The position numbers were made by a program, and so were the translations under genes. 64,000 nt of DNA, taken from Nitrospinaceae bacterium (GTDB lineage Bacteria > Nitrospinota > Nitrospinia > Nitrospinales > VA-1). The notes below the pieces were generated by a model. That model was not told the DNA's origin. It saw only the letters and a list, made by a program, of their open reading frames with translations, and did no database searches. Positions 4,119 through 64,000 of this stretch are shown one piece after another. Location: assembly GCA_029261595.1 (NCBI GenBank), contig JAJDAZ010000001.1, positions 23 through 64,022 on the forward strand, written 5' to 3'. The first letter of the stretch is position 1, and each line of letters starts with the position of its first letter.

Positions 4119-5043
4119 CAGCCCACCCACCCAGGCAATTTTCCTGATGGCCCACGGGGCGCCCACCCGCGTGGACGACATCCCGCTTTATCTTAAAAAT
4201 ATTCGTGGCGGCAAAGAGTCCACTCCCGAAGTGATTAAGATCATCCAGGAGCGCTACGAAGCCATCGGCGGCAGTTCTCCCCTGCTTGAAATCACACGGG
4301 GTCAGGCCGAAGCGCTGGAGAAATTCATCAACCAGGATGGGAAGAATACCTTCAAAGTTTATTTCGGCATGCGCAGTTGGAACCCCTATATCAAGGATGA
4401 GGTCCAACAGATGGTGGACGACGGCATCAAAAAAGTGGTTGCCCTCTGCCTTGCCCCGCAATACAGCAAATGGAGCACCGAGCGTTATTTCAAATCCTTC
4501 AACGACGCGCTCAAGGAATCCGACCCGGAGAACAATCTGGAGATACAATATATTGCCAGCTGGTGCGATCATCCTTGCCTCACCGATGCGTTCGTCGAAA
4601 AATACAATCAGGCGATTGAAAAATTATCAGAAAAAGATAAAGATCAGGTTCACACCGTGTTCACCGTGCACAGCATTCCCGCCGCCGCCGTGGATGAAGG
4701 CGACCCTTACGCCGAAGAATACGAAAAAACCGTGCGCCACATTGTCGAGCGGGTTCAACCCAGAAACTGGCACATGGCCTACCAGAGCCAGGGAATGATC
4801 CCCGTGCCCTGGCTCACACCCACGGTAGAATCGGTTCTCGACAAGATCGCCCGGATTGGCGCAAAACCGGTTCTTGTGGTTCCTGTGGGTTTCGTGTCCG
4901 ACCACATAGAAATTCTATACGACATCGACATCGAATTTAAAAACTACGCCAAAGAACGCAAGCTCGATCTTTATCGAACCGAATCGATGAATCTGTCTCC
5001 CACCTTCACCGAAGCCCTCGCCGCCCTGGTGTGGCCCGCGTAA
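4111..5043 (+). CDS. hemH: Ferrochelatase
   Basis: FLMAHGAP N-terminal motif, TVHSIP, and GFVSDHIEILYDID near the C-terminus. The start ATG at 4111 overlaps the hemE stop (ATGAGTGA). The longer ORF from 3913 runs inside hemE in another frame. Confidence 0.9.
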   Translation: MSDSPPTQAIFLMAHGAPTRVDDIPLYLKNIRGGKESTPEVIKIIQERYEAIGGSSPLLEITRGQAEALEKFINQDGKNTFKVYFGMRSWNPYIKDEVQQMVDDGIKKVVALCLAPQYSKWSTERYFKSFNDALKESDPENNLEIQYIASWCDHPCLTDAFVEKYNQAIEKLSEKDKDQVHTVFTVHSIPAAAVDEGDPYAEEYEKTVRHIVERVQPRNWHMAYQSQGMIPVPWLTPTVESVLDKIARIGAKPVLVVPVGFVSDHIEILYDIDIEFKNYAKERKLDLYRTESMNLSPTFTEALAALVWPA

Positions 5044-50151: not shown

Positions 50152-50180
50152 TTGATCGACAAAATTCTTAAATAATAAAT

Positions 50181-51047
50181 ATGAAAATTAATATTAGACC
50201 CGCTATTTCTACTGATGCAGAAACATGCGGTCGAATTATTTTTGAAAGTTTCAAAAACCTTTCCAATCAGCATGGATTCCCGTGTGATTTTCCAACAATG
50301 GAGGTCGCTGCCGGGCTTGCAGATATATTAATTAGGAAAAGTACGGTATTCAGCATCGTTGCTGAAATTAATGGATCAATAGTCGGATGTAATTTTTTAA
50401 ATGAAATAAATCCTATCCGTAGTGTCGGCCCATTGTGTGTTAGCCCTGATTTTCAGGGCCATGGGGTTGGGCGCAGGCTCATGGAAGAAGTGTTGCGTAG
50501 GGCCAAAGACTCTCTTGGGATTCGCTTGATTCAGGAAACCCTAAATATTGTTTCAAGTTCTCTTTATATCTCGCTAGGTTTTGAAGTAAAGGAATCCCTG
50601 TTTTTGTTAACGGGGAGACCGAAAACCAATGTTTCCAAGCAAGGAATTGTTGTTCGCCCTTTTACTTTGGAAGAAAAAAATCTGTGCGCAGAGTTATGTG
50701 CAGATATTTATGGTTTTGAGCGCACTCAAGAGGTTTTAGATGCATTGAATTTTTCCATCCCATTTATTGCTCTGCGTGGAAACCGATTAATCGCATATTC
50801 CTCTTCAATGACCATGTCAATGACGAACCACTGTGTGGCCAAGACAGAAGAAGATATGAAAGCGCTTTTTCTGGGTATTGCAAAATTAACTTCTGAGCCA
50901 CTTGTTTTCCTTTTGCCAGTCCGTCGAATAGAACTTTTTCGATGGTGTTTGGAAGAAGGGTTTCGGATTGTGAAACCTTTCACTTTAATGTCAAAAGGAG
51001 AATATTTTGAACCTAACGGAATCTATTGTCCTTCCGCTAGTTATTAA
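50181..51047 (+). CDS. GNAT-family N-acetyltransferase with an extra C-terminal domain
   Basis: Acetyl-CoA motif A FQGHGVGRRLMEEVLRRA. About 130 further residues of unknown function follow. Confidence 0.75.
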   Translation: MKINIRPAISTDAETCGRIIFESFKNLSNQHGFPCDFPTMEVAAGLADILIRKSTVFSIVAEINGSIVGCNFLNEINPIRSVGPLCVSPDFQGHGVGRRLMEEVLRRAKDSLGIRLIQETLNIVSSSLYISLGFEVKESLFLLTGRPKTNVSKQGIVVRPFTLEEKNLCAELCADIYGFERTQEVLDALNFSIPFIALRGNRLIAYSSSMTMSMTNHCVAKTEEDMKALFLGIAKLTSEPLVFLLPVRRIELFRWCLEEGFRIVKPFTLMSKGEYFEPNGIYCPSASY

Positions 51048-51205
51048 ATGGTTGCTCGAAAGATATCAGCAATTGTGTTAAACTTGCCAGCGAAATTTTA
51101 CTACTAATAGCTTATTTGAAGGATAATTTTTATGTGATTGTAGAAATATTTCAAGCATTTATTTTTACTCCAATTAATTCTAAACTCTTCCGATTTTAAC
51201 TTCTC

Positions 51206-51778
51206 ATGCTAAATAACTCTCTCAAAAAAATCGTTTTCCTTCTTATCCTATCTAGCCTAGCGGGTCGAATTTTTGGCATTTCTAATTATGCGTTTGCCGG
51301 GGATTTCGTAGCTCGCGAGGCCACTATAAAAGCGGGTTTTCTATTAAAATTTTCCGAATTTATCCAATGGCCAGAATATTACAGTTCTCTTCATTCCGAA
51401 GAACCTCTTAATATATGCCTCCATGGAGAGGATAAGTTTGGAAATATCTTCGATTATGTAAATGATCACGACATATTGAGAAGAAAAATAGAAATTACTC
51501 GTTCTGTCCCAATTAATGAGTTAAAAAGTTGTCATCTAGTATTTATCAGCACTCATAAAATCGAAGATATTGACAAATTAGCTAGGGAAATTAGAAAATC
51601 TCCCGTTCTCGTGGTTACAACAAGCAAAGCAATATCCCACCCCTTGGTCGCGATTAATTTTCGTAAAATCAATAACCGAATCCGTTTTGAGATAAATTTA
51701 TCTGCTTTTGAACGATCTGGGATAAAAATTAGTTCAGAGCTTCTAAAATTAGCAATAAATATAGTCAGAATTGATTAA
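51206..51778 (+). CDS. YfiR-family (DUF4154) periplasmic protein
   Basis: Signal peptide. The conserved start of DUF4154 (IKAGFLLKFSEFIQWP) and a C-terminal RFEINLSAFERSGIKISSELLKLA are present. Confidence 0.7.
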   Translation: MLNNSLKKIVFLLILSSLAGRIFGISNYAFAGDFVAREATIKAGFLLKFSEFIQWPEYYSSLHSEEPLNICLHGEDKFGNIFDYVNDHDILRRKIEITRSVPINELKSCHLVFISTHKIEDIDKLAREIRKSPVLVVTTSKAISHPLVAINFRKINNRIRFEINLSAFERSGIKISSELLKLAINIVRID

Positions 51779-51779
51779 T

Positions 51780-53282
51780 ATGAAGTTTTTCAAAAAATTT
51801 CCTATCAAAATAAAAGTACTCGTCCTACTTTTGCTCGTATCATTCGTCACATTGATCGTTTCTTCCACTTTTTTTGTTTATAACGATCTCAAGATTTTTA
51901 AGAAAAATTTACTTGTAAACCTGACTGCTTTGGCAGGAACCGTTGGGGCAAACAGTAGATCCGCTGTTTATTTCGAGGACAAGGAAACTGCCGCCGAAAT
52001 ATTATCTTCTCTAAAAGAAGACCCTCAAATTCAATATGCCATTATTTATGATTCCGATGGAAATATTTTTGTAACGTACGATGGGAAGAATTCAAGTAAT
52101 CAATTGTCCCAACGAAAGGATGATATCTTTCATTTTTTTAAGGAAGGTGCGCTTGAGCTAAAACGGCCAATAATTCTAAAAGGGAATAAGATAGGGGACA
52201 TACATATTTCTGCAGATCTAAATCAATATAATGCAATCATTGAAAAGTATTTTCTTATTGTAGGGTTAGTCCTATTATCCACCTTTGGAATAGCTATAGT
52301 ATTATCATTTGGACTACAAAAATTCCTCTCAAAACCCATCCAAACTCTTGCCAAAGCGATCAATGAAATTTCAAATAAGAATGACTACTCAATAAGAGTG
52401 AACCATCAATATCAGGATGAGATTGGTGAATTATATTTTGGTTTTAACCAGATGATTTCTCAAATCGAAAAAAGAGACATTGAACTAACTTTAACTAACA
52501 GTGCTTTAAAAAAGGAGGTAGAGGAACGAGGGCGTGCTGAAAATAACTTAAAAGTTTACTCGGAGAAATTAAAACGAAGTAATCAGGAGCTACAGGACTT
52601 TGCAACAATTGCCTCGCATGACCTTCAAGAACCTTTACGAAAAATCATTACCTTTGGAGATCGGATTACTACTGAAATCACTGAAGTAGATGAAAAGGGG
52701 AAACATTATATAGCTCGAATGCAAAATGCCTCCGATAGGATGAAAAAATTTATCAATGATTTATTAGAGTATTCAAAAATAGAATCAAAAGCCAGGCCTT
52801 TTAAAAGAGAAGATCTCAATAAAATTTTTTCTACTGCAATGGAAAATTTGGAAATCCAAATATCAAAATCTCAAGCTCAAGTCATTTGTGAAAACTTACC
52901 TACTCTTGAAGTCGATTCCTTTCAAATCCTCCAGTTATTTCAAAATTTAATCTCCAATGCTCTTAAATATAAAAAGACGAATGATCATCCAGTCATAAAG
53001 ATTTATGCCCGTTTAATTGAACCGGATCTTTGGGAAATCATTGTCGAGGATAATGGGATTGGTTTCGACATTAAATATCTTGATCGCGTATTTAAACCTT
53101 TTGAGCGGTTACATGGGAAAAGTGACTACGAGGGAAGCGGAATGGGTTTAACTATTTGCAAAAAAATAATTATTCGTCACGGAGGAAGTATTACCGCATC
53201 CAGTATTCTTGGAGAAGGGGCTACTTTTAAATTCACCTTACCCGAAACTCAAAAACAGCAATATAAACTTCAGAATGTTTAG
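51780..53282 (+). CDS. Sensor histidine kinase: CHASE8-like periplasmic domain, HAMP, HisKA, HATPase_c
   Basis: TM1 plus an extracytoplasmic domain ([45 protein letters not shown]) and TM2 plus HAMP. H-box [10 protein letters not shown] and ATPase boxes DNGIGF and GSGMGL are present. Confidence 0.85.
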
Positions 53283-53314
53283 ATGGAAAGGGTTTTAACG
53301 GGCTGTTGGATAAT

Positions 53315-54766
53315 ATGAAGGATTTGAATTTTTTTTCAATTAAAAAAAAATTAACCTACCTGTTCATGCTTGTTTCAGGAACTACACTCATAATATTAAC
53401 CACGTTTTTCATATATAACGATATAAAAATTTTCAAAAAAAGCTTACTAGATAAACTTTCTATATTAGCCAGCGTAGTTGGTTCAAATGTAAGAGTAGCT
53501 CTATATTTTGAAGATAATGAAGCCGCCACGAAAGTGCTATCATTGTTAATGGAAGATTCGCAAATTGAATTTACTGGCTTATATGATTCAAAAGGAAAAA
53601 TTTTCGCTAAATATCAATCTGCTGGATTTTCTAGAGATAAATATAGATCCAGTGGTAATAAAAAGAATTATATCGAACTAAAAAAACAGATCTTATTGAA
53701 AGGTGCTTTTATTGGGAGCATCTTAATAATTGCAAACTTAAATGAATTCAGAGAAAAGCAAAGAAAGTACTTTCAACTAGTGGGAATTATTCTGCTTGCA
53801 ACTATAGGATTGGTTATTTGGCTATCAATCAAACTACAAAGAATCATTTCCAAACCAATATTAAATTTAGCCAATACCGCTAATAAAATTTCGAATACTA
53901 ATAACTACTCTTTACGGGTCAATTATCCACATGTGGATGAATTGGGGCAACTATACAATTGTTTCAATGAGATGATTGCCCAAATTGATAAAAGAGAAAT
54001 ACAATTAAATGACTATAGGAAACATTTAGAACACAAGGTTCAAAAACGAACTAAAGAATTATCGCTTATCAACTCTCAACTTAGCATTGAAGTAGAAAGG
54101 CGAAAAAATTTTGAAGATCACCTTAAAAATTCTCTTGATGAGAAAGAAATTCTGCTCAAAGAAATTCACCATCGTGTAAAAAATAATCTTCAAATCATTT
54201 CCAGCCTTCTAAATATTCAGGCCCAATATAAAGGGCCGGAGTACTCTCACATCTTTTCTGATTGTAGTAACCGGATCCAATCTATTGCCCTTCTCCATGA
54301 AAATATTTATAAAACCTCTAAATATATGCAAATTAATTTTGATCAATATATTGAAAATTTGGTTAAATATTTATTTCAAACATTTGGAATATCCTCCGAG
54401 GCAGTTAAGGTAAACATTCAGGTTTCTAATATACCTTTGGACCTTGACGCGGTATTGCCGTGTGGTTTGATAGTCCAGGAACTTATTTCCAATTCATTGA
54501 AGCATGCTTTTCCTGATGGGAAAGGTGAAATTGATATTTGTATGCAATATATTATTGAGGGTGAAAATAATATAGAGCTTAACGTAAGCGATAACGGAGT
54601 TGGGTTGCCCGAAAAGTTTGACCTTGAAGAGGTTGATACATTGGGTTTAAAACTTGTTTCTAGATTGGTTGAAAATCAATTAAAAGGAACAATTTTTATC
54701 AATCTGGAGGAAAAAACCGAATTTAAAATAAAATTTATGAGTAGGAAAGAAAACAATGTCTTCTGA
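53315..54766 (+). CDS. Sensor histidine kinase: paralogous CHASE8-like sensor, HAMP, HisKA_2-type (HWE-like) kinase core
   Basis: The N-terminal sensor is clearly paralogous to the preceding kinase ([38 protein letters not shown]). The H-box [17 protein letters not shown] is of the HisKA_2 type. The ATPase box is SDNGVGLP. Confidence 0.85.
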
Positions 54767-55151
54767 TAAGGCCAGAATTTTAATTGTGGAGGATGAGGAT
54801 ATTGTCGTGTTTGATATTGAATTGATCTTAGAGGCTGCCGGTTTTGATGTAGTAGGGTCCGCTTCTTCCGCTGTAAAGGCAATTCAAAAATTGAATGAAG
54901 AACAAATAGATTTGGCAATTTTGGACATTAGACTTGAGGGTAAGATCGATGGTATTACCCTTGCGGATACAATAAGTAAAATTTATAAGATCCCTGTAAT
55001 TTTTCTTACGGCATTTTCATGTAAGAAGATTTTGGATAGAGCTAAAATTTCTACACATTATGGATTCCTTGTTAAACCATTTAACCCGGAAACTTTAGTG
55101 TCAAATATCGAAATTGCTCTTTATAAACACAAAAGTGCTGAAGAGAAATAA
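54756..55151 (+). CDS. Single-domain (CheY-like) response regulator
   Basis: Receiver motifs are present: [10 protein letters not shown], the phospho-acceptor context DLAILDIRL, and FLTAFS...VKPF. It overlaps the kinase stop by 11 nt. Confidence 0.9.
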
Positions 55152-55240
55152 GCCTACAATGGACAAAGTGAAATTTGATTTATGAAACTTTAAAAATCAC
55201 GACTTCGGTTGACAAGTTTTATTAAATTAGAACTGTTTGA

Positions 55241-55462
55241 CGTCAGCCAAAAGCGGACGTAGATATCGATAAATTTCCTTACAACGCCTACCAGTTGGAA
55301 GCCATGATTAACGTCCTGGAACAGAAAGGTATTTTGACCGGGAAAGAAGTTCTGGACGAAATGGAAGTGGTTGTGGCGGCCAAGAGGAAGAAAGAGGCTA
55401 ATTGTAGGGTGCAGGGGCTTTGGTCCCTGGGGGGCTGGGGCATCGATCAAGTGTGGTTCTAG
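55241..55462 (+). pseudogene. Possible gene remnant or very small ORF (..DKFPYNAYQLEAMINVLEQKGILTGKEVLDEMEVVVAAKRKKE..)
   Basis: This frame is open from a TGA at 55238-55240 to a TAG at 55460-55462. The protein-like helical segment has no ATG or GTG before it; only an internal TTG and ATG would give about 52-55 aa. G+C looks higher than in its AT-rich surroundings. Confidence 0.25.
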
Positions 55463-55497
55463 TAATACCGCACTTTAGTGCCAATATGGAACTATTA

Positions 55498-56736
55498 TTA
55501 ATAGATGATAGGTTCCTTTTTGCTGTCGTTTAATAAATGAACCCCTAAAAAACGTCTTTGCGAAATAATGTCATTTTTTGTATTACCAATGGTTTTAAAA
55601 TAAATTCTTAACAATGGGCTAATTCGTCGACTAATTCTATTATCAATTTCTTCAAACAAATTTCTTGCATTGCAAAACTTATAATGATTTCCCCATCCCA
55701 TTAATTTGAAATTAATTTGAGAGAGTGTAGAAACCAATGAATTGTCTCTAACATTTTTCTTTTTAAAATTTTTTAATTGCTCAATCCCTGCATTTACAAT
55801 TATGTCAATATTTTGATATAGATTGTCGATTGTCTTTTGGTTTGGCAAGATGGAGTCTTCCGAAAGAATACAACCTAAAAAATTGATCCCGTCCTTTGAT
55901 TTCCCTTTTTGTGCTTTTGAGTTATTTTCAGAAGGATCATAAATTTCCATACCAAATTTCTCTAAGTGTCTTTTAGCAAGCTTGACAGCCCTTTGTAGCT
56001 TCGATTCTGTTTTGCATAAAATTAAAAAATCATCGATGAAACGAATGCAATTTATTTTGTTCGAATTCATTTCCTCATCAAATTTTTTTAACAAAACATT
56101 ACCAAAAAAGGGTGACAAAGATGAGCCTTGCGGTGCACCAATTTCTTGATCAGGAAATAAATGCCTATTTTTTAATCTGTTAATATTTTCTAATTCAACC
56201 TTAGTTGCGTTTTTTAGCAATATATTTATTGATTGGTCGGGATCTATTAAATCAAAAATTTTATCGAGCACAATTTGCTTTGGAATTTTTGTGAAAAACC
56301 CTTTTATGTCTGCCCTGCAATAATGGCGGCATCCAGATTTAATGATCTCGTGGGCTTCTTTTAAGGCCATGCTCACACTTCTTTTTGGAAGGCCTCCGAA
56401 GCTTCTAGGGCTAGATAAGAAGGATTTTACTTGCGGATTTTGCCACAAACAATCCAATAAGGCTCGATGAACAATCCGATCGTGAAGGTGCGGTACAACT
56501 AAAGGCCTTAATTGCCCATTTTCCTTTTCAATTTCCACGCCTCTGGCTAATTTAAAAGAGTACCTCTCTCCTCTAAGTTGATCTTTTATTGTTTTGAGGT
56601 AGGTATTTTCTTTTTCTTTGAATTTAATAACTTCGGATTGGGTTATTTGCGACTGAGATTGCAAACCATTTTCGTATACTTTTTTCCAAGCATTGGATAG
56701 GCAGTCATTTGTACGTAGCTTTTGATCGAGGGACAT
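55498..56736 (-). CDS. Stand-alone reverse transcriptase, group-II-intron-like (candidate defence-associated/unknown-group RT)
   Basis: RT motifs RPLVVPHLHDRIVHRALL (1-2), ADIKGFFTKIP (3), GAPQGSSLSPFFGNVLL (4) and CIRFIDDFLILC (5, FIDD in place of YADD). INFLGC (7) and a maturase/thumb-like LMGWGNHYKFCN are also present. There is no endonuclease domain. Confidence 0.88.
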   Translation of the reverse strand: MSLDQKLRTNDCLSNAWKKVYENGLQSQSQITQSEVIKFKEKENTYLKTIKDQLRGERYSFKLARGVEIEKENGQLRPLVVPHLHDRIVHRALLDCLWQNPQVKSFLSSPRSFGGLPKRSVSMALKEAHEIIKSGCRHYCRADIKGFFTKIPKQIVLDKIFDLIDPDQSINILLKNATKVELENINRLKNRHLFPDQEIGAPQGSSLSPFFGNVLLKKFDEEMNSNKINCIRFIDDFLILCKTESKLQRAVKLAKRHLEKFGMEIYDPSENNSKAQKGKSKDGINFLGCILSEDSILPNQKTIDNLYQNIDIIVNAGIEQLKNFKKKNVRDNSLVSTLSQINFKLMGWGNHYKFCNARNLFEEIDNRISRRISPLLRIYFKTIGNTKNDIISQRRFLGVHLLNDSKKEPIIY

Positions 56737-57012
56737 TTATATTGGATTCTCTGCTCTGGGGAACCTCCGATTAACGCCTACCCCGGTTGCAGAAAGAGAC
56801 TACTGTGAGTGATTGGATGGAAAGTTCCACCCTCAATTCAAATGACGAGGATAAGGTCATTCCCAAATCCACTCCGCCATCATGGCAATTATGCGGCCTT
56901 GATGACTCCCTGAAAGACGCAACCGGAATCTGAATTCCGATCGCTAACAGGAACAGAAACCCTATTTATAATATCACACAACCGAAGAAATAAATATTTT
57001 GATGGCTTGGTA
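56737..57012 (-). other. Long non-coding leader upstream of the RT (candidate structured or template ncRNA)
   Basis: There is no credible ORF here. On the RT strand a TATAAT-like element (GATATTATAAAT) lies near 56975. Hairpins include CGGAAT-TCAG-ATTCCG (56924-56939) and GGATGGAA-AG-TTCCACC (56815-56831). GGGG, CCCC, AACC and GGTT segments offer competing pairings next to the start codon. Confidence 0.3.
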
Positions 57013-57016
57013 TGTA

Positions 57017-57129
57017 TTGGATTATGGAATGAGGTTTCAGGGAGGTTATTAAGTGTCAGTTAATATGGGATTTATGAAAAGGCGGGAAATACCGGGAAAA
57101 AGTGGTGGAAAGTGGGATATTTAAAGGGG
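57017..57129 (+). repeat. Three spaced direct repeats (candidate transposase L1-L3 end-binding sites)
   Basis: TTGGATTATGGAATGAGG (57017-57034), ATGGGATTTATGAAAAGG (57065-57082) and GTGGGATATTTAAAGGGG (57112-57129). The consensus is about TGGGATtTATGAAaAGG and the spacing is 47-48 bp. Confidence 0.45.
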
Positions 57130-57315
57130 TTTGTGGTCCAGGCGAAATTTTTTTATCCCAAAGTAACTGCAACTCGGAATCGGACAAAACAGGGGTGTTT
57201 GTTGCACTTAGTTTGGGAAATTAGGAAGATTAATTTGTATTCATCGGCATCCGAGCTGATAGACAGTGTCCAATGTTTCAACCGCTATCGACCAGAAGCG
57301 GATATCTCCACCGCC

Positions 57316-58200
57316 TTACACTTGATCGAAAACGAGCCTTCCACCACCGTTACGTTTTGCTCGATAGATTGCGATGTCAAGATTAACGTCGCGAGCCTTA
57401 CCAACGATGTCCTCAATGTCGGACTTCTCCATCTCGAGTCCGAGATACAACTCCGTGATCTCTTCAGGATGGTATGGGACAGTGTTCCAGGGCCGTTCGT
57501 CTTTCCTGATCGGAATAGCTAGGCGATATTCCCCTTCGTGTTGCCAATCCAACGTTTTGGTGTAAATGATCCGTTCGACGATCTCTCTGACTTGGGATTC
57601 ATGGTTGCCAAATAAAGCGCCAGCACTAAATTTAAGCGTATCTTCGTAGAGCGGAGGGCGTTTCTCTCGGTATATGACGGGACGAAAGAGTTGGAATTTA
57701 GAGTCATTGGAAAAATTTGGTTGGATTCGCAGGGAAACGCCCTTGTGCTTTTCAGCATACTCAGTCCACATGCGCTCCGAGTCTTTGTGGGTAGAGACGC
57801 AAAGAACGCGATAATCCTGCATGAACTCGTTGATCTCTGCGATATGCGCCTGTGCCTTGTCACGGTAGTACTCAACGTTATCGGGCAGGTTCATCAGTTC
57901 GGCCCTAACCAAGTCAGCGGCACCTGGATTCGCTCGGTAACCCTGCTGAATGGCCCTGATTTTTTCCTTCATCGGCGAACTGCATGTGGGCTCCTCGTCA
58001 AGGTGACGTAGGATCATGTCAGTGAAGCCACCAGCGATCTTCTTCAGCGCTTCCTCGGTGTCCTCTGAGAAGATACTTTGGATCGTCAGATCCTCTACAT
58101 CGTTAAAATCCGACGGTTTTGCGTGTTTGAATGTCCTGTTTGCGAACGTCAGCTTCGCACCTGTAACGTCAAGGTACTTGTAAAGTGGAGGCAAAGTCAT
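57316..58200 (-). CDS. DUF2971-like protein (unknown function), leftmost gene of the putative prophage
   Basis: The N-terminus (PPLYKYLDVTGAKLTFANRTFKHAKPSDFNDVED) matches my recollection of the DUF2971 pattern (LYKY...l.F..p..FNDp.E). It is co-oriented with the repressor gene immediately upstream of it. Confidence 0.5.
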   Translation of the reverse strand: MTLPPLYKYLDVTGAKLTFANRTFKHAKPSDFNDVEDLTIQSIFSEDTEEALKKIAGGFTDMILRHLDEEPTCSSPMKEKIRAIQQGYRANPGAADLVRAELMNLPDNVEYYRDKAQAHIAEINEFMQDYRVLCVSTHKDSERMWTEYAEKHKGVSLRIQPNFSNDSKFQLFRPVIYREKRPPLYEDTLKFSAGALFGNHESQVREIVERIIYTKTLDWQHEGEYRLAIPIRKDERPWNTVPYHPEEITELYLGLEMEKSDIEDIVGKARDVNLDIAIYRAKRNGGGRLVFDQV

Positions 58201-58303
58201 CTATGAAGACACCATCTCGTTTGGTTGCATCGCGAACGGCTGCAAGGGGTCGAATCCGGTCATTTGAGATCTGACACTGTCTATAAAGTAGAAATAAACA
58301 AAA

Positions 58304-58990
58304 TTAAATCTGCCTCCCGTACCAGACCACACGCCCCACCACCTGCAATAAATCCAGTTGGCCCTCGCCGACTGTGAACTCTTTGTATGCCGGGTTGTCG
58401 CTTTTAACGACCAGTTCCTTCCCCATCATCCGCTGGATGCGCTTAACCTGAAGCGTGGAATCATTCTTAATACAGTAGATCCCATCATCCTGGACCTCAT
58501 TGACCGCCGTATTTATTAACAACAGATCATCTTCCTCGATGGTAGGTTCCATCGAATCCCCTTTGGCGGTTATCAGCGCAAGGGCTTTGGGATCCGCTCC
58601 CAGCTTGGTTTTGACCCAGTCTTGCTTAAAGGCCAGGTGGTCGACGACAGCCTCATTTTCGTTGATGGCCCCATGCCCGGCGCTTGCCTGCACATCGTAT
58701 CTCGGAACATAAATATAGTCATCCCGACTTTTCATGCCGTTATTGACCGATCCCCTCTCAGAAACCCCGGAATCCCGCGTCATTGAACCTTCACCGGTCA
58801 TGAGCCAGTCCGTGCTCACATTATAGGTTGAAGCTATTTTTAAAGCCCATTCAGCCGGAAAAATCCCTCTTTTTTTAGCGTCTGATATAGGTGGCTGGGT
58901 TATCGACAACGCATCCGCGACATCCTTTTGCGTGGAAAGGCCAGTTCCTATCTTTATTCTTTCCCATACCTGTTCAAATTGAGTCAACAT
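58304..58990 (-). CDS. Phage cI-type repressor: HTH domain plus S24 (LexA-like) autopeptidase domain
   Basis: The HTH segment is QKDVADALSITQPPISDAKKRG...WLMTGEG. The S24 catalytic Ser context is KGDSMEPTI and the Lys context is LQVKRIQ. ATG at 58990; the ORF-track start is a TTG at 58996. Confidence 0.85.
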   Translation of the reverse strand: MLTQFEQVWERIKIGTGLSTQKDVADALSITQPPISDAKKRGIFPAEWALKIASTYNVSTDWLMTGEGSMTRDSGVSERGSVNNGMKSRDDYIYVPRYDVQASAGHGAINENEAVVDHLAFKQDWVKTKLGADPKALALITAKGDSMEPTIEEDDLLLINTAVNEVQDDGIYCIKNDSTLQVKRIQRMMGKELVVKSDNPAYKEFTVGEGQLDLLQVVGRVVWYGRQI

Positions 58991-59021
58991 TTTCAATTGA
59001 TTTCGGACTTTTCAGATAAAA

Positions 59022-59152
59022 GCGCGAAAAAAAGTGCGAAAAATTTTATAGCCATAGGTTGTTATTTTTAAAGGATTGTATAGCTTTAGAATATAAAGTA
59101 AGTGCGAAAAGCTATTTTTATATTGACAGACTATATAGTCTTAAAATATATT
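59022..59152. promoter_or_regulatory. Divergent repressor/early-operon control region: repeated GYGCGAAAA boxes, palindromes and a sigma70-like early promoter
   Basis: GCGCGAAAA (59022-59030) and GTGCGAAAA (59034-59042 and 59102-59110). Inverted repeat ATAGCTTT/AAAGCTAT (59090-59097/59108-59115). TTGACA (59123-59128), an 18-nt spacer, then TATATT (59147-59152). The 12-bp palindrome GACTATATAGTC (59129-59140) lies within that spacer. Confidence 0.45.
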
Positions 59153-59262
59153 CATTGTCCGTTAGCAAGTAATTGTTATCGCAGATTATAGGAAAACCAG
59201 AAGTCGTTCAATATCTATTTTTTCGGTTTTCCTGAATTAGAAACCTTCAAATCCGCATTTAG

Positions 59263-59682
59263 ATGTCCGAGCAACTCACCCTTTTCAATGGCAAATCCTT
59301 CAACCCCATCGCGCGGGTGAAAGAGGCCATGCGCCAGTCCATAAAGGGAAGCGGATTTTCACGCGAACAGGTCGTCGATCAAATGAACGAACTGGCGCGG
59401 ATCGAAGGCATCACCACGGGAGGAAGGGCTAAGGAAATTTCCATCGACCTCCTGGAAAAATGGTTATCGCAAAGTGCCGATCACCTGATCCCCTGGAAGT
59501 TGCTCCCCATTTTTTGTTTCGTCGTGAAATCCATCGATTCCATGAAACCTCTATTGGCTCCCTTAGACGCGCACATCATCAATAACGAGGAGTGGGCGAT
59601 GTTTGAATGGTCAAAAGCGGAAAAAGAGAGAAGACAAATTCTGAAAAGGCAAAAACTTCTCGAAGGAAAAATGAATTTATGA
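59263..59682 (+). CDS. Hypothetical early phage protein
   Basis: First ORF of the rightward early operon, 139 aa. Its stop overlaps the next start (ATGA). No family was recognised. Confidence 0.5.
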   Translation: MSEQLTLFNGKSFNPIARVKEAMRQSIKGSGFSREQVVDQMNELARIEGITTGGRAKEISIDLLEKWLSQSADHLIPWKLLPIFCFVVKSIDSMKPLLAPLDAHIINNEEWAMFEWSKAEKERRQILKRQKLLEGKMNL

Positions 59683-59903
59683 AAGGGAAAAATAAAAGCC
59701 GGTCCAGGGCAGAAAGAAAATCGCTGGAGATCCAGTTCTGGCTGAGAAAACGCAGGATATTACAGAAGGATCTCGCCAAGGAAATCGGCGTTCATGAGGG
59801 CATTGTATCGCGTGCCATCACCGGCAATGGAAACAACCGGCGGGTGCTGGAACACCTTAAGCAAATCGGCGTTCCACAGAATTATTTGGGTGGTAAGAAA
59901 TGA
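59679..59903 (+). CDS. Ner-like small HTH DNA-binding protein
   Basis: 74 aa counted from the ATG at 59679. The HTH segment is ILQKDLAKEIGVHEGIVSRAITG. Its position immediately before the transposase gene matches Mu ner. Confidence 0.55.
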   Translation: MKGKNKSRSRAERKSLEIQFWLRKRRILQKDLAKEIGVHEGIVSRAITGNGNNRRVLEHLKQIGVPQNYLGGKK

Positions 59904-62062
59904 CCACAATCCCTGAAAAGCTAACTGCCGGACAAATTTCCGATGCCACGGGAAAGACGTTAAGGTCGGTTCAGATATTCGCAAAAAAACAAAATTGGTC
60001 GTTTTCAGAGGTTAAGGGTTTAGGCGGCAAGAAACGCCTTTACCCCTTCTCCTCCCTGCCCGCGACAATACAAATAGTCATTCAAAAACATTACGCACCT
60101 GCTCCGGTACCGCCAGTGACCGGGCATTTGTCGTCCCTCCCCGCTGAAACGTCCCACACTCAAACCTTACGGACCCACTCAGCGGCGGTGGGACGCCTCC
60201 CTCATCAGGCGGATAAAGTCGCCCGCGCCCGCGCCGACCTGGTCGCCGCCTATTTAACAGCGAAGGAAAACGGAAAATCCAAAAAACAAAAAAACGCGGA
60301 CATCATAAATCAATTCCTGCAAGCCTACGGTTCCGGGCTTTCCTTCCCCCAGCTTTATCAGACATTGGGAGCGGTATCCCGATCAACGCTGGAACGCTGG
60401 CGCAAGGATCTGGAAGAAGCCAACTACGATTATCACGTCCTCGCACCCAAATGGGGCAGGCATCGAAGCGGAACCACAAAGCTGACCGAGCGGGAATCGC
60501 AAGTCCTGATGACCCAGGTCTTTCACCAGAACCGCGTTAAAACCGGAACCGCAATCACCGTCACAAAATATATTCTGGAATTGGAAGGGTCGCCATCACC
60601 CTCCAGCCCAGCCACCATGCGTCGCGCCGTCGACCAATTTAAAAATCGCCACTTTGACCTATGGACCTTTTATCGCGAAGGTGAAAAAGCCCTTGTCGAT
60701 AAAGTCCTTCCCTTCATAGAGCGCGATGATTCACTGATTGACGTGGGCGACGTATTGGTGGCGGACGGGCACCGCTGTAATTTCCGCGTGAAAAATCCGT
60801 GGACCGGTAAGCCTTGCCGACCCATGCTAGTCGGCTTTTACGATTGGAAATCCCGGATCCTCTGCGGTTGGTCCATTTCCCTGGAAGAAAATACCCAACT
60901 CATCACCGCTGCCTTGAGAAACGGCATCATTCGCCTGGGCAAAACGCCAAAGATCGTCCTGCTCGACAACGGAGCCGCGTTCAAGTCAAAAGTATTTACA
61001 GGGGATATGGACCTGGAACAAAGCGGCATTCGCGGCATGTTCGCCCGTCTGGACATCAAGACCGTTTTCGCCTGGCCCTACAACGCGAGATCCAAGCCTA
61101 TAGAGAGGTTCTTCGGCGATTTTAGCAATCAGTTCGAACGCTTCATGCCGTCCTTTTCAGGCGCTTCCATCACCGACAAACCCGCTTCATTAATGCGCAA
61201 CGAAAAACTGATGCAGGCGTTCTACAAAGAAAACGTCATGGAAATCCCGCAGGTCATGGCCGCTTTGGAAAAATGGTGGGATTTTCACGCCTGGACCCAG
61301 CACCCGACGTTGAAAGGTAAACAAAAAGGCCAGGTGTTTGAATCCGGTCGTGGACCCGGCATCGACCAGGGAAAACTAAACGACCTCATGCTCGATTCAG
61401 AAATCAAACGCATCGGGCGAAACGGTATCAGTTTCCTGGGTGCGGATTACTTTCACGAATCCCTTTACGGCCTGCGCGAACAGGTGGTCATCCGCTACGA
61501 CTTTTGCGACATCGCCCACGTTCACGTCTATGCAAAAAACGGCGATTATATTTGCCGCGCGGATCGCAAAGACAAGGTGCATCCGATGGCGGCCTTACTG
61601 GGTAAAGCCAAAGACGTGGAAGACCTGAAATTCCATATCGGTCAGCAACGCTCCCTGAAAAAACAAACCACAAAAATCGCGCGTCAGGCGCTGGATATGA
61701 CAGGCGACATGGAAATCGTCAAAGCCCTGCCCTGGGACAAGATAGTGGAAGCCGCGCCCGATCTTCCCGAAAAAGTTGAGCGGATAGAAGCCGAGTACAC
61801 CGGACTCAAAGCTCTGGAGGCCGTCCCGGTCATCGACGCTGAAAGCCTTCCAGAGTTACCGGAACCAGATACGGAGAAAAGCCAGGCGGAAGTGATCCCA
61901 TTCTTTGCGACCGACGCCGATTATTACAACCACCTGGCAGGGCTTGTCCGTCCACTCAGTGAATCAGAAATCCTTTTTTTGGAAGAATTTTACAGGACCG
62001 AATCAGGGAAGGCTTTTTTGCAAATGGACGGTCGTTTGAAAACCGCAACTGCGGAGCAATAA
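59900..62062 (+). CDS. Mu-type DDE transposase (MuA-like)
   Basis: 720 aa. N-terminal HTH/winged-helix DNA-binding modules, and an rve-type DDE core (VLVADGHRCNF, VLLDNGAAFKS, then a downstream E). A long C-terminal Mu-transposase-like domain follows. Confidence 0.8.
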   Translation: MTTIPEKLTAGQISDATGKTLRSVQIFAKKQNWSFSEVKGLGGKKRLYPFSSLPATIQIVIQKHYAPAPVPPVTGHLSSLPAETSHTQTLRTHSAAVGRLPHQADKVARARADLVAAYLTAKENGKSKKQKNADIINQFLQAYGSGLSFPQLYQTLGAVSRSTLERWRKDLEEANYDYHVLAPKWGRHRSGTTKLTERESQVLMTQVFHQNRVKTGTAITVTKYILELEGSPSPSSPATMRRAVDQFKNRHFDLWTFYREGEKALVDKVLPFIERDDSLIDVGDVLVADGHRCNFRVKNPWTGKPCRPMLVGFYDWKSRILCGWSISLEENTQLITAALRNGIIRLGKTPKIVLLDNGAAFKSKVFTGDMDLEQSGIRGMFARLDIKTVFAWPYNARSKPIERFFGDFSNQFERFMPSFSGASITDKPASLMRNEKLMQAFYKENVMEIPQVMAALEKWWDFHAWTQHPTLKGKQKGQVFESGRGPGIDQGKLNDLMLDSEIKRIGRNGISFLGADYFHESLYGLREQVVIRYDFCDIAHVHVYAKNGDYICRADRKDKVHPMAALLGKAKDVEDLKFHIGQQRSLKKQTTKIARQALDMTGDMEIVKALPWDKIVEAAPDLPEKVERIEAEYTGLKALEAVPVIDAESLPELPEPDTEKSQAEVIPFFATDADYYNHLAGLVRPLSESEILFLEEFYRTESGKAFLQMDGRLKTATAEQ

Positions 62063-62129
62063 AAAAGGACCGGTGTCGCGGGAACGACGACCGGCCCCAA
62101 TACCTAAAAATTCAGAAGGAGATTACTAC

Positions 62130-62843
62130 ATGAATCACCAGGTTGTCAAAACCAAGAACGTCCAGGCGTTTTTTTCCGGGCTGGAAGTCCTGAAAAATGG
62201 CGTCAAGGGCCGAATGGGAATGATGTTGATCTTCGGTCCGCCCGGCACAGGTAAAACCTTCATCACCCAGAAGCAGGCGATGGAAGACGACACCGTCTAC
62301 GTCCGCTGCAAATACATCGACAAACCCAAAAGCCTGTTACATGCCATCGTCGCAGAGCTGGGCGAAGAACCGCGTGGATTCACATCCCACCTTTTCAACC
62401 AGGCCCTTGAGCAATTATTGATGCGCCCGCGCACGTTGATTCTCGATGAAGCCGACTACATGGTGCATGCGGGAATCATCGAAATCATCCGCGACCTCAA
62501 CGACATGGCCAACACCCCCATCATCATTTCAGGCATGGGCAATATTGATAAAAAGCTTCAGCGGTTTCCTCATTTAGTCGACCGCATCCGCGCCATCGTT
62601 CAATTCAAACTGTTCGACCTGGGAGAAATCAAGATGTTGGGCAAACAAGTCTGCGAGGCGGAGATCGACGACAGCGCTTACGAATACATCGCCAAGACAG
62701 GCCAGGGCAAGTTCCGTGTCACCAACGATCTTTTTGATCTGGCTGAGCGCCTGCAAAAGCGGACTCCACAAATCAAGGCCGTCACCGTCGATCACCTGGC
62801 TCCCGCCTGGGAAAAAGAAAAACAACGGGAGCGCCGCGCATGA
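62130..62843 (+). CDS. MuB-like AAA+ ATPase (transposition target-DNA activator)
   Basis: AGGAG lies 8 nt before the ATG at 62130. Walker A is GPPGTGKT and Walker B is LILDEAD. It sits immediately downstream of the transposase. Confidence 0.7.
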   Translation: MNHQVVKTKNVQAFFSGLEVLKNGVKGRMGMMLIFGPPGTGKTFITQKQAMEDDTVYVRCKYIDKPKSLLHAIVAELGEEPRGFTSHLFNQALEQLLMRPRTLILDEADYMVHAGIIEIIRDLNDMANTPIIISGMGNIDKKLQRFPHLVDRIRAIVQFKLFDLGEIKMLGKQVCEAEIDDSAYEYIAKTGQGKFRVTNDLFDLAERLQKRTPQIKAVTVDHLAPAWEKEKQRERRA

Positions 62844-63406
62844 GCAAACCGTTAAACAAATTAAAACTTGTTATCGACTGCCTTTGCAAAACTCGCAGAA
62901 AAAAAATAGCTTCTGATTTTGTCGTCGCTGAAACGGGGCTGGAGCATAAGGCAGTTCTCCGGGTCATGCGTAGGCTAACGAAACAAGGGCATCTTGAATT
63001 GATTGATAAAGGAAAAATTTCTAACAGCAATACGGGCCGAGCCTACAGCAAAAACCCGACCTGGAAGATCGTAAACCGAAAATCCTTACCCAATCGTTTG
63101 AAGCGAAAGAAAAAGTCAGGAAATATTCGCGACCGAATTTGGAAAGCCATGCGCATCAAGCGAATTTTTCTCTTAAAAGACATCATGAAGCTGGCCGAGG
63201 TAAAAGAAGCAACTGCGATGAACTATATCCATATTCTCGAACGCAACAAATATGCGCGCAAAGTGGGCCTCCGCGCCCCGCGCGAAGGATGCCACTGGCA
63301 ACTCATCCGCGATGATGGGCCAGACCGTCCAGCCCTCAAAGAATATCCTGAACATGATGTCACCCTGAGCCTGTCGAAGGGCGTCAGCAAGGAAGGTGCC
63401 GCATGA
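62840..63406 (+). CDS. Hypothetical phage early protein (two winged-helix-like segments)
   Basis: 188-aa ORF that overlaps both neighbouring genes by 4 nt. It is basic (KRKKKSG). No family was recognised. Confidence 0.45.
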   Translation: MSKPLNKLKLVIDCLCKTRRKKIASDFVVAETGLEHKAVLRVMRRLTKQGHLELIDKGKISNSNTGRAYSKNPTWKIVNRKSLPNRLKRKKKSGNIRDRIWKAMRIKRIFLLKDIMKLAEVKEATAMNYIHILERNKYARKVGLRAPREGCHWQLIRDDGPDRPALKEYPEHDVTLSLSKGVSKEGAA

Positions 63407-63726
63407 CCGACACCTGGTTAAAACTTCTCAAGCAGAACCTCAAGCAAAAAGGCCCGAAAAAAGTCAGCGCGGAATTGGGTTACTCAACGGCAACCTTGAA
63501 CCTTTGCAAAAACGGAAAATACGAAAAGACCGAAAAAGTCAAAGCGCGCGTCATGGCGATTTACGGCAACAACGGCAAGGTCGAGTGCCCGGTGCTCGGC
63601 GGTATCACGCCGCAAAGATGCGCCGACCATCACGGCCGCGCCAGGAAAGTGGGCATCCGCGTCGGCAACCCGGACACCATGCGGCTTCATAAAACCTGCC
63701 TTAAATGCCCCGTCAGAGGAGGATAA
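63403..63726 (+). CDS. Hypothetical phage early protein (HTH plus Cys cluster)
   Basis: 107 aa, with KVSAELGYSTATLNLCKNG (HTH-like) and Cys residues C..C....C..C. Confidence 0.4.
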   Translation: MTDTWLKLLKQNLKQKGPKKVSAELGYSTATLNLCKNGKYEKTEKVKARVMAIYGNNGKVECPVLGGITPQRCADHHGRARKVGIRVGNPDTMRLHKTCLKCPVRGG

Positions 63727-63729
63727 CCC

Positions 63730-63894
63730 ATGATGATAGATGACGATCTTCTGGAACTCTATGCTTCCGAATACACGCAAAAAAGCACCAGGGAATGGGG
63801 AATGACCTTCAGGGAATTTCTGGAATTCAAAATCGAATGTAACCGTGAAGTGAACCAAACTTTATTAGAGGCAAACAATGGCGAAGAAAATTAA
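63730..63894 (+). CDS. Small hypothetical phage protein (54 aa)
   Basis: Manual translation gives MMIDDDLLELYASEYTQKSTREWGMTFREFLEFKIECNREVNQTLLEANNGEEN. It is below the ORF-track length cutoff and is tightly packed in the operon. Confidence 0.35.
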   Translation: MMIDDDLLELYASEYTQKSTREWGMTFREFLEFKIECNREVNQTLLEANNGEEN

Positions 63895-64000
63895 AGAAGA
63901 AATCATCACCGAGGAACAGGCAAAAAAAGCAATGCAACAGCTCAATAAATACAATGCGGCCCTTGCCCAGCTCTACCGCGACGAGGCATCGGACATTGAA
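63878..64000 (+). CDS. Gam-like (host-nuclease inhibitor) protein, N-terminal fragment cut by the window end
   Basis: MAKKIKEEIITEEQAKKAMQQLNKYNAALAQLYRDEASDIE is coiled-coil-like. Its position after the A/B genes is as in Mu. Only 41 codons are visible. Confidence 0.3.
   Translation, partial: MAKKIKEEIITEEQAKKAMQQLNKYNAALAQLYRDEASDIE

Follow-up and report, generated by a model that had tools for sequence, protein, structure and literature searches.

A 64,000-nt stretch of DNA from a Nitrospinota metagenome-assembled genome (MAG), below called the window, carries the gene for a stand-alone reverse transcriptase (RT) of 412 amino acids that is very probably a divergent member of the G2L4 family. 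The reference enzyme of this family is the G2L4 RT of Pseudomonas aeruginosa AZPAE12409 (PaG2L4; WP_034031052), which has been crystallized in two forms (PDB 9d5x and 9d4s) and whose repair function and features have been described (Park et al. 2022, 2025; 10.1101/2022.03.14.484287, PMC11761039). To the combined statement that the window RT belongs to G2L4 and acts in DNA repair we assign a probability of about 0.75; taken separately, repair as its main role in the host appears somewhat probable by homology. The gene and the segments of the protein on which the argument relies are as follows.

55498..56736, minus strand: stand-alone RT, 412 aa, ATG start, intact (open reading frame (ORF) call), with an N-terminal extension (NTE) carrying the RT0 loop, motifs RT1-7, and thumb/X with a C-terminal extension
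56647..56658, minus strand: RT0-loop S-Q-S-Q, residues 27-30; S27 and S29 are the conserved G2L4 serines S28 and S30
56152..56193, minus strand: distal RT3a segment LENINRLKNRHLFP, residues 182-195, homologous by alignment to the 'RT3a knot' of G2L4
56125..56133, minus strand: RT4 motif P-Q-G, residues 202-204; A-Q-G in most G2L4 RTs of the family alignment
56029..56040, minus strand: catalytic box F-I-D-D, residues 233-236 (sequence position and family alignment)
55531..55557, minus strand: C-terminal thumb extension RRFLGVHLL, residues 394-402, equivalent to the alpha4 dimer-interface segment of PaG2L4 (R397-R404)

The RT ORF is full length, with no frameshift and no internal stop. Pfam recognizes RVT_1 at residues 69-290 (88 bits) and the GIIM maturase/thumb domain at 319-377 (32 bits), and the thumb motif GWGNHYKF lies at residues 347-354. 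Beyond these two, no further Pfam domain was found in the 412-aa protein, and neither Pfam nor the AlphaFold2 (AF2) model shows a DNA-binding/endonuclease (D/En) domain. The model, built from a 54-sequence alignment, is confident throughout (mean predicted local distance difference test score, pLDDT, 94.6; predicted template-modeling score, pTM, 0.89) and contains fingers, palm and a three-helix thumb and nothing more, with a helix at 390-397. The first-pass annotation of this DNA had described an orphan group II-like RT of this length with an FIDD box, a maturase-like thumb and no endonuclease or effector domain, and ORF, Pfam and motif positions all agree with that description.

A phmmer search of PDB sequences returned the G2L4 entries 9d5x and 9d4s at the top (E = 2e-62, 214 bits), in an alignment that runs end to end (residues 13-404 of the window RT against 14-408 of 411) at about 34% identity. 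The next best entry was the group II intron RT 7uim with 93 bits; group II intron RTs scored 71-93 bits and DRT9, a defense-associated RT (DRT), 34 bits. The structural comparison gave the same order. With the AF2 model as query, Foldseek ranked G2L4 9d4s first, at a template-modeling (TM) score of 0.88/0.89 and a root-mean-square deviation of 2.8 A over 410 columns, compared with TM scores of 0.69 for the GsI-IIC group II intron RT, 0.66/0.56 for DRT9, 0.66 for the RT of a diversity-generating retroelement (DGR), 0.58 for DRT2 and at most 0.5 for retron RTs.

HMMER, run exhaustively against 1.84 billion representative proteins, yielded 364 clusters at the cut-off of E <= 1e-30. Of the best 150, nearly all are about 400-450 aa long, match over near-full length and are 31-42% identical to the window RT; the closest identity in public data is at most 42%. 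PaG2L4 itself is 69% identical by BLAST to one member (P0011) and 36-44% to the others, which is the window RT's own range. In a neighbor-joining (NJ) tree, quickly and roughly built without support values and without G2L3, G2L5 and UG reference sequences, a 164-member ingroup takes in both the window RT and PaG2L4 and excludes an RT-Cas1 fusion and two RTs of the group II intron type. Sequence, structure and family membership together assign the RT to G2L4, a family of characterized DNA-repair RTs, and not to a new type of system, and it is probably not a new anti-phage system.

The residues of the active site point the same way. YIDD in place of YADD is a distinctive feature of G2L4 (Toro & Nisa-Martinez 2014, PMC4244168; Park et al. 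2022, 10.1101/2022.03.14.484287), and the active-site isoleucine favors microhomology-mediated end joining (MMEJ) over primer extension (Park et al. 2022, 10.1101/2022.03.14.484287). Among 165 aligned family sequences, the catalytic box is YIDD in 105, YVDD in 24, YLDD in 13, FIDD in 11 and YADD in 2; about 98% have I, V or L as its second residue, and both YADD sequences are outgroup proteins. Judged by sequence, the FIDD of the window RT is the G2L4 signature, I at position 2, with a minority Y-to-F variant at position 1. All 21 positions that are invariant in the family are intact in the window RT, as are most near-invariant ones, including D143, D235 and D236. Close to the C-terminus the family consensus RRxLGVHLL is kept as RRFLGVHLL, in the part of the protein whose counterpart in PaG2L4 contributes to the dimer interface described in PMC11761039. 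In addition, the two enzymes have the same architecture (NTE/RT0, RT1-7, RT2a/RT3a, three-helix thumb with C-terminal extension, no D/En domain), nearly the same length (412 versus 411 aa), the isoleucine at catalytic position 2, two RT0 serines, an acidic RT3a residue, the RRxLGV motif and a location in low-GC acquired DNA.

Several observations weigh against this assignment or against the function derived from it. The window RT is only about 34% identical to PaG2L4, no public sequence comes closer to it than 42%, and the repair role itself derives from one studied enzyme. The NJ tree is a rough one, as described above. The RT4 motif is not the A-Q-G of G2L4 and instead has the P-Q-G state of group II intron RTs: the 165 sequences include 129 with AQG and 25 with PQG (two of these, P0019 and P0021, are outgroup proteins, leaving PQG in 23 of 163 ingroup sequences), the PQG members are scattered in the tree, and only the window RT combines FIDD with PQG. 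In G2L4, the active site is plugged by the 'RT3a knot', which is inserted ahead of RT4 and carries the conserved R190/R191 and the acidic D182; AlphaFold is reported not to predict this knot (PMC11761039). In the window RT the insertion looks shortened, by 3 aa relative to PaG2L4 and by 1 aa relative to most of the family (most members are also shorter than PaG2L4 here), and the arginine pair appears to be gone: E183 is the equivalent of D182, and K-N aligns with R190/R191. The conserved serines S24 and S28-S30 of the G2L4 NTE/RT0 loop have a role in template binding (PMC11761039). At the four corresponding positions, the window RT has N23, S27, Q28 and S29 (S24 and S29 of PaG2L4 being replaced by N and Q); only two of the four would thus be left, and this pair is at least 90% conserved in the family alignment. 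Further differences from PaG2L4 are Y to F in the catalytic box, R397 to Q, R404 to H, and a host in the Nitrospinota and not in the Proteobacteria. Finally, the canonical leader element that is common in relatives, described below, is absent from the window, as is the conserved spacer sequence that accompanies it.

Family membership, fold, the intact catalytic and family-invariant residues and the lack of intron, retron or DGR RNA features were computed here; dimerization, the RT3a plug and repair are transferred from PaG2L4. By this homology the window RT would be a homodimeric DNA-repair polymerase. Its NTE and RT0 loop may help to anneal short microhomologies at the 3' ends of broken DNA, and the (Y/F)-I-DD site would then fill in across the junction, as in MMEJ and snap-back synthesis, with bypass of lesions. 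The bulky I that replaces A in this site is predicted to favor end joining over processive primer extension, and before substrate binds the site is probably blocked by the distal RT3a segment. G2L4 RTs as a group are free-standing ('domesticated') descendants of group II intron RTs, in which both the intron RNA and the DNA-binding/endonuclease domains are gone.

The kinship with group II introns raises the question of whether the gene could belong to a mobile intron, degenerate or unusual, with a ribozyme that escaped detection. The best NCBIfam match is indeed TIGR04416 (group II intron RT/maturase) with 183 bits, and a GIIM domain is present. The score stays below the 300-bit cut-off of that model, however, and a scan of 53000-60000 with Rfam 15 at E <= 1 found no group II intron, retron or other family on either side of the gene; its sole hit, VqmR at E = 0.53, is a chance match. 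The protein lacks the DNA-binding/endonuclease domain, the flanks of 276 nt (5') and 346 nt (3') are too short for domains I-IV and IV-VI in recognizable form, and the whole G2L4 family is free-standing (Simon & Zimmerly 2008). We therefore consider a missed intron extremely improbable. Compared with mobile group II intron RTs (GsI-IIC, 6ar1; the E. rectale and R. intestinalis maturases, 5hhl and 5hhj), the window RT has in common the fold (TM about 0.7), RT0, RT2a/RT3a, the thumb and PQG; it differs in having neither intron RNA nor D/En domain and in the I for A in the catalytic box.

Searches for other RT-associated RNA features were equally empty. There are no long direct or inverted repeats around the RT and no repeat of at least 30 nt within 54900-57400, and hence no template repeat/variable repeat (TR/VR) pair of that size as in DGRs. 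For a retron, flanking inverted repeats, a VTG motif and an effector were looked for around and in the RT and not found, and the St85 model scored 46 bits against a cut-off of 235. Together with the sub-threshold TIGR04416 score and the empty Rfam scan, this bears out the earlier statement that the locus is not an obvious retron, DGR or intron. The 10-mer AACGCCTACC occurs in direct orientation on both sides of the RT (55283-55292 and 56773-56782); we discarded it because about 3 such pairs are expected by chance in 2.5 kb.

Upstream of the gene, the first-pass annotation had seen a structured non-coding region next to the start codon, and had likened the layout to RT systems with an RNA template. 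The region contains the following features.

56737..57012, minus strand: non-coding leader of 276 nt with several hairpins (fold and ORF scan); no canonical G2L4 leader element
56758..56784, minus strand: GGGG...CCCC hairpin, 22-48 nt before the start codon, with alternative AACC/GGTT pairings beside it; seen in this sequence only

No credible ORF was found in 56737-57012 in any frame, and the folded leader forms hairpins at 56919-56944, 56876-56906, 56807-56874 and 56758-56784, so that the description of a non-coding, hairpin-bearing leader holds. In the sense of the RT, the fold is modestly better than that of dinucleotide shuffles (z = -2.04; 7 of 200 shuffles as good), and in antisense it is not far from them (z = -0.57). 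The promoter-like AT box that had been proposed was not recovered: a sigma-70 scan of the leader called nothing on the RT strand, and the number of sites in the region (6) equals that expected from shuffles (6.2). The RT start codon, described earlier as poorly served in this respect, lacks a Shine-Dalgarno motif; this is not distinctive, since only 9 of 37 window genes have one and a weak Shine-Dalgarno context is therefore the norm of this host.

The leaders of relatives provide the comparison. Scanning genome contigs with the single protein found no relative and an alignment-based scan was needed; with the family alignment, we retrieved 80 loci from species-representative genomes of Alpha-, Beta-, Gamma- and 'Delta'-proteobacteria, Nitrospira, Acidobacteriota, Myxococcota, Zixibacteria, Saccharibacteria and Dehalococcoidia. 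At 47 of these loci, two direct repeats of about 110-195 nt (mostly 115-145) precede the RT start, and in 44 of the 47 the two copies are 95-100% identical. Relative to the start, the proximal copy occupies about -185 to -55, with the distal copy about 350 nt further upstream; the spacer measures about 215-245 nt and is longer in Pseudomonas. Repeats called 'LDRs', with a spacer of about 240 bp, have been reported for Pseudomonas only, in about 70% of its loci, where they are abundantly transcribed and modulate the repair phenotype (Park et al. 2022, 10.1101/2022.03.14.484287). We find LDR pairs in at least 8 phyla, for example at L015:4464-4582 and 4807-4926 and at L008:264-398 and 634-768. 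Among the 71 loci whose upstream sequence extends to 600 nt or more, about 46 have two copies, about 17 a single copy, which is always the proximal one, and about 8 none.

Aligning all 43 LDR copies with MAFFT and folding them with RNAalifold gave almost no structure, the alignment being poor. A subgroup of 10 sequences gave a three-hairpin consensus, from which a covariance model was built and iterated once. This model hits the RT-sense strand only and also recovers single-copy loci. In the three hairpins, 85.8% of cells are paired, compared with 42-48% when partners are slid, compensatory changes occur in 30 of 33 pairs, and none of 500 shuffles reaches the observed values, with the caveat that the alignment was fitted to the model. 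Rfam recognized no family in four canonical leaders. The spacer of about 230 nt is conserved as well. It contains the 17-mer CATGCAAAAACGTGCCA, which is exact in 17 loci of scattered taxa; in every case this lies on the RT strand, and its usual distance upstream of the proximal LDR is about 45-65 nt. Examples are L015:4744-4760, L008:562-578, L030:4705-4721 and L066:4756-4772, and the RT proteins of the 17 loci are only about 35-45% identical. The copies are identical within a locus and divergent between loci, which points to concerted evolution. A DGR-like relation between the copies was rejected, as their differences are few and not adenine-specific.

Three minor observations concern members of the family outside the window. 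A subset of the RTs is fused to RNase H (P0012, P0013, P0014, P0141 and L090:904-2589); all of these have FIDD and AQG and a C-terminal PF00075 domain (80-89 bits), and L090 has an upstream LDR pair with 145-nt repeats that are 99% identical (272-416 and 663-807). A single-LDR member comes from a MAG labeled Nitrososphaera sp., an archaeon (L003, GCA_036779715.1; P0005/P0024). In some entries (L005, P0016 and others), gene callers extend the RT ORF upstream over the LDR, giving for instance 472 or 497 aa, and place spurious ORFs of 90-230 aa inside leaders.

The window leader does not belong to this type. With filters off, the covariance models R1 and R2 gave at best 1 bit in the leader and nhmmer gave nothing; the 17-mer is absent from the window even with 3 mismatches, and the leader fold has a different architecture from the LDR. 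We also tried the GGGG...CCCC-AGAG hairpin of the window as LDR hairpin 3 and dropped it, since neither the covariance models nor nhmmer support it and the fold differs. The idea of a stand-alone RT with a structured RNA upstream is hence correct for the family, most homologues having a conserved, covarying leader, and fails for the window itself, whose leader lacks the LDR. The comparison of upstream regions that had been suggested as a check thus splits in the same manner: conserved structured LDRs emerged in most homologues, and the window leader matches none of them. It had also been suggested that phage insertion cut off an upstream partner or RNA. The Mu-like prophage described below begins 276 nt upstream of the gene, and the proximal LDR copy and the 17-mer would sit within these intact 276 nt; as both are absent, the insertion alone cannot explain the missing leader. 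We propose that the gene has no LDR-type leader RNA and that the prophage would have inserted later.

All four PQG loci examined (the window, L032, L043 and L088) lack the LDR, of which about 3 are independent, since L032 and L043 are closely related Byssovorax MAGs; L088 is a Logan contig. The LDR is present at most AQG loci, and also at the FQG (L008) and IQG (L071) loci, in what is a small sample. No alternative leader shared by the PQG-type loci was found. The leaderless PQG type might be a functionally distinct branch of G2L4-like RTs. If LDR RNA and the AQG/RT3a plug jointly made up a regulatory module that holds G2L4 inactive until it is required, the PQG branch would have escaped from this control, and could be a constitutively active polymerase or work with another nucleic-acid partner, including in an RNA-templated or defense-related role. 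We regard such a distinct branch as unlikely.

The first-pass annotation had leaned toward an anti-phage system of the DRT/UG or retron type with the RT at its center, in which the leader would be a non-coding RNA (ncRNA) that is reverse-transcribed (as in DRT2, DRT9 or UG systems) and the partner or the RNA might have been cut off by the prophage. With such RTs the window RT has in common that it is a stand-alone bacterial RT in accessory DNA, where an upstream ncRNA is often found; the 276-nt leader with its sense-strand fold (z = -2.04), the AT-rich islet adjoining a prophage and a family leader RNA that is conserved, covarying and, in Pseudomonas, abundantly transcribed with an effect on phenotype can all be read in this sense, and PADLOC reports RT_UG17 at 125 bits, UG4 at 104 and Drt9 at 86. 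These scores are generic, however. PaG2L4 gives the same pattern (RT 149, UG17 109, UG4 84), the generic RT model reaches 178 bits for the window RT and so exceeds all class hits, and the best class hit, UG17, is a cross-hit that does not make the protein a DRT. The NCBIfam models for Drt2, Drt3a, Drt4, Drt5 and retrons have cut-offs of 200-550 bits, of which the window RT reaches 14-53. DRT9, DRT2 and retron RTs also fit its structure far less well than G2L4 does, and the similarity to DRT/UG and retron RTs amounts to the generic RT core (PADLOC 47-125 bits, TM 0.45-0.66). No effector gene or domain, retron a1/a2 repeats, VTG motif or TR/VR pair was found at the locus, and the window leader matches nothing in homologous loci. 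The prophage neighbor is a Mu-like element, and such elements insert at many sites. With sequence, structure and family all indicating G2L4, a defense system of this kind is unlikely.

Another explanation is that the gene is a functionless passenger on its low-GC islet that has lost its leader and is drifting toward decay. The canonical leader, which about 88% of relatives retain wholly or in part, is missing. The gene also has no close public relatives (at most 42% identity), carries the unusual substitutions that make FIDD with PQG unique among 165 sequences, and shows no promoter-like site on its strand. Decay is difficult to reconcile with a full-length ORF without frameshift or stop, with 21 of 21 invariant and most near-invariant positions intact, among them D143, D235 and D236, and with an AF2 model that is confident throughout. 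Leaderless or PQG loci also occur in unrelated genomes (L013, L019, L021, L026, L032, L043, L049, L078 and L088), so that lacking a leader is a recurrent state and not a sign of decay. We hold the passenger explanation to be quite unlikely.

These results mainly correct an annotation: the apparent orphan and candidate defense RT belongs to the only family of free-standing group II intron-like RTs for which a cellular function has been assigned and structures have been solved, and should be annotated as G2L4 and not as retron-type or DRT. To our knowledge, G2L4 had previously been reported as restricted to Proteobacteria. The range of the family is widened here to Nitrospinota (the window) and to genomes or MAGs of Nitrospirota, Acidobacteriota, Myxococcota, Zixibacteria, Saccharibacteria and Dehalococcoidia. 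The natural active-site variants recorded (FIDD, PQG and Y[VL]DD) bear on the balance between end joining and primer extension, and the leaderless FIDD and PQG variant of the window could inform structure-function questions on I/A and AQG/PQG. The conserved, covarying family leader may be worth more than the locus itself, as it makes the role of 'LDRs' directly testable.

The RT gene lies at the edge of a low-GC islet (about 50180-57012) of 31-40% GC, compared with about 52% in the rest of the window, in agreement with the earlier note of AT-rich accessory DNA. The host is placed in the Nitrospinota by its UvrD, which is 80% identical to Nitrospinaceae proteins. The islet contains a GNAT acetyltransferase, a YfiR/HmsC-like protein, two CHASE8-HAMP histidine kinases, a response regulator and the RT, and is probably one horizontally acquired block. 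A low-GC, horizontally acquired location has been reported for PaG2L4 as well (Park et al. 2022, 10.1101/2022.03.14.484287). The RT is convergent with the response-regulator gene, which ends at 55151; the distance from the RT stop to this gene is 346 nt, and there is no co-oriented neighbor downstream.

On the other side, the leader ends exactly at the boundary of the prophage (57012/57013), whose early region starts at 57013 and, as had been noticed before, directly abuts the locus.

57013..64000, plus strand: left arm of a Mu-like transposable prophage, context only; starts TGTATTGG and runs off the window

This arm encodes a DUF2971 protein, a CI/S24 repressor, regulators, a MuA-like transposase and a MuB-like ATPase. 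Its Pfam hits are Mu-transpos_C, rve, Peptidase_S24 and Phage_CI_repr, and PHROG matches comprise the transposase phrog_310 (350 bits) and a DNA transposition protein. A blastn search of the arm against GenBank phages gave no match, so the Mu-like identity rests on the protein profiles. The same RT-leader/phage junction is seen in an independent Logan contig, L007. In this contig (L007:1-60 against window 57013-57072), agreement with the window extends over the RT leader and 36 nt into the phage end, after which the sequences diverge, which may be what is expected from de Bruijn assembly if the phage has terminal inverted repeats of about 36 bp. We also considered whether the insertion had cut a gene; only a 40-codon open stretch extends from the junction, which is not convincing. 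Between the Mu-like left end and the repressor, at 57316-58200 on the minus strand, lies the gene for the 294-aa DUF2971 protein, which matches PDC-S31, a candidate defense family of PADLOC (101 bits), and phrog_1762. It looks like a phage-borne accessory gene ('moron'), possibly with a defense function, and belongs to the prophage and not to the RT locus. Finally, the GC-rich stretch between the two convergent genes contains, at 55290-55462 on the plus strand, a TTG-initiated ORF of 55 codons (MEAMINVLEQKGILTGKEVLDEMEVV...) without Pfam match, which may be a small gene, a remnant or nothing.

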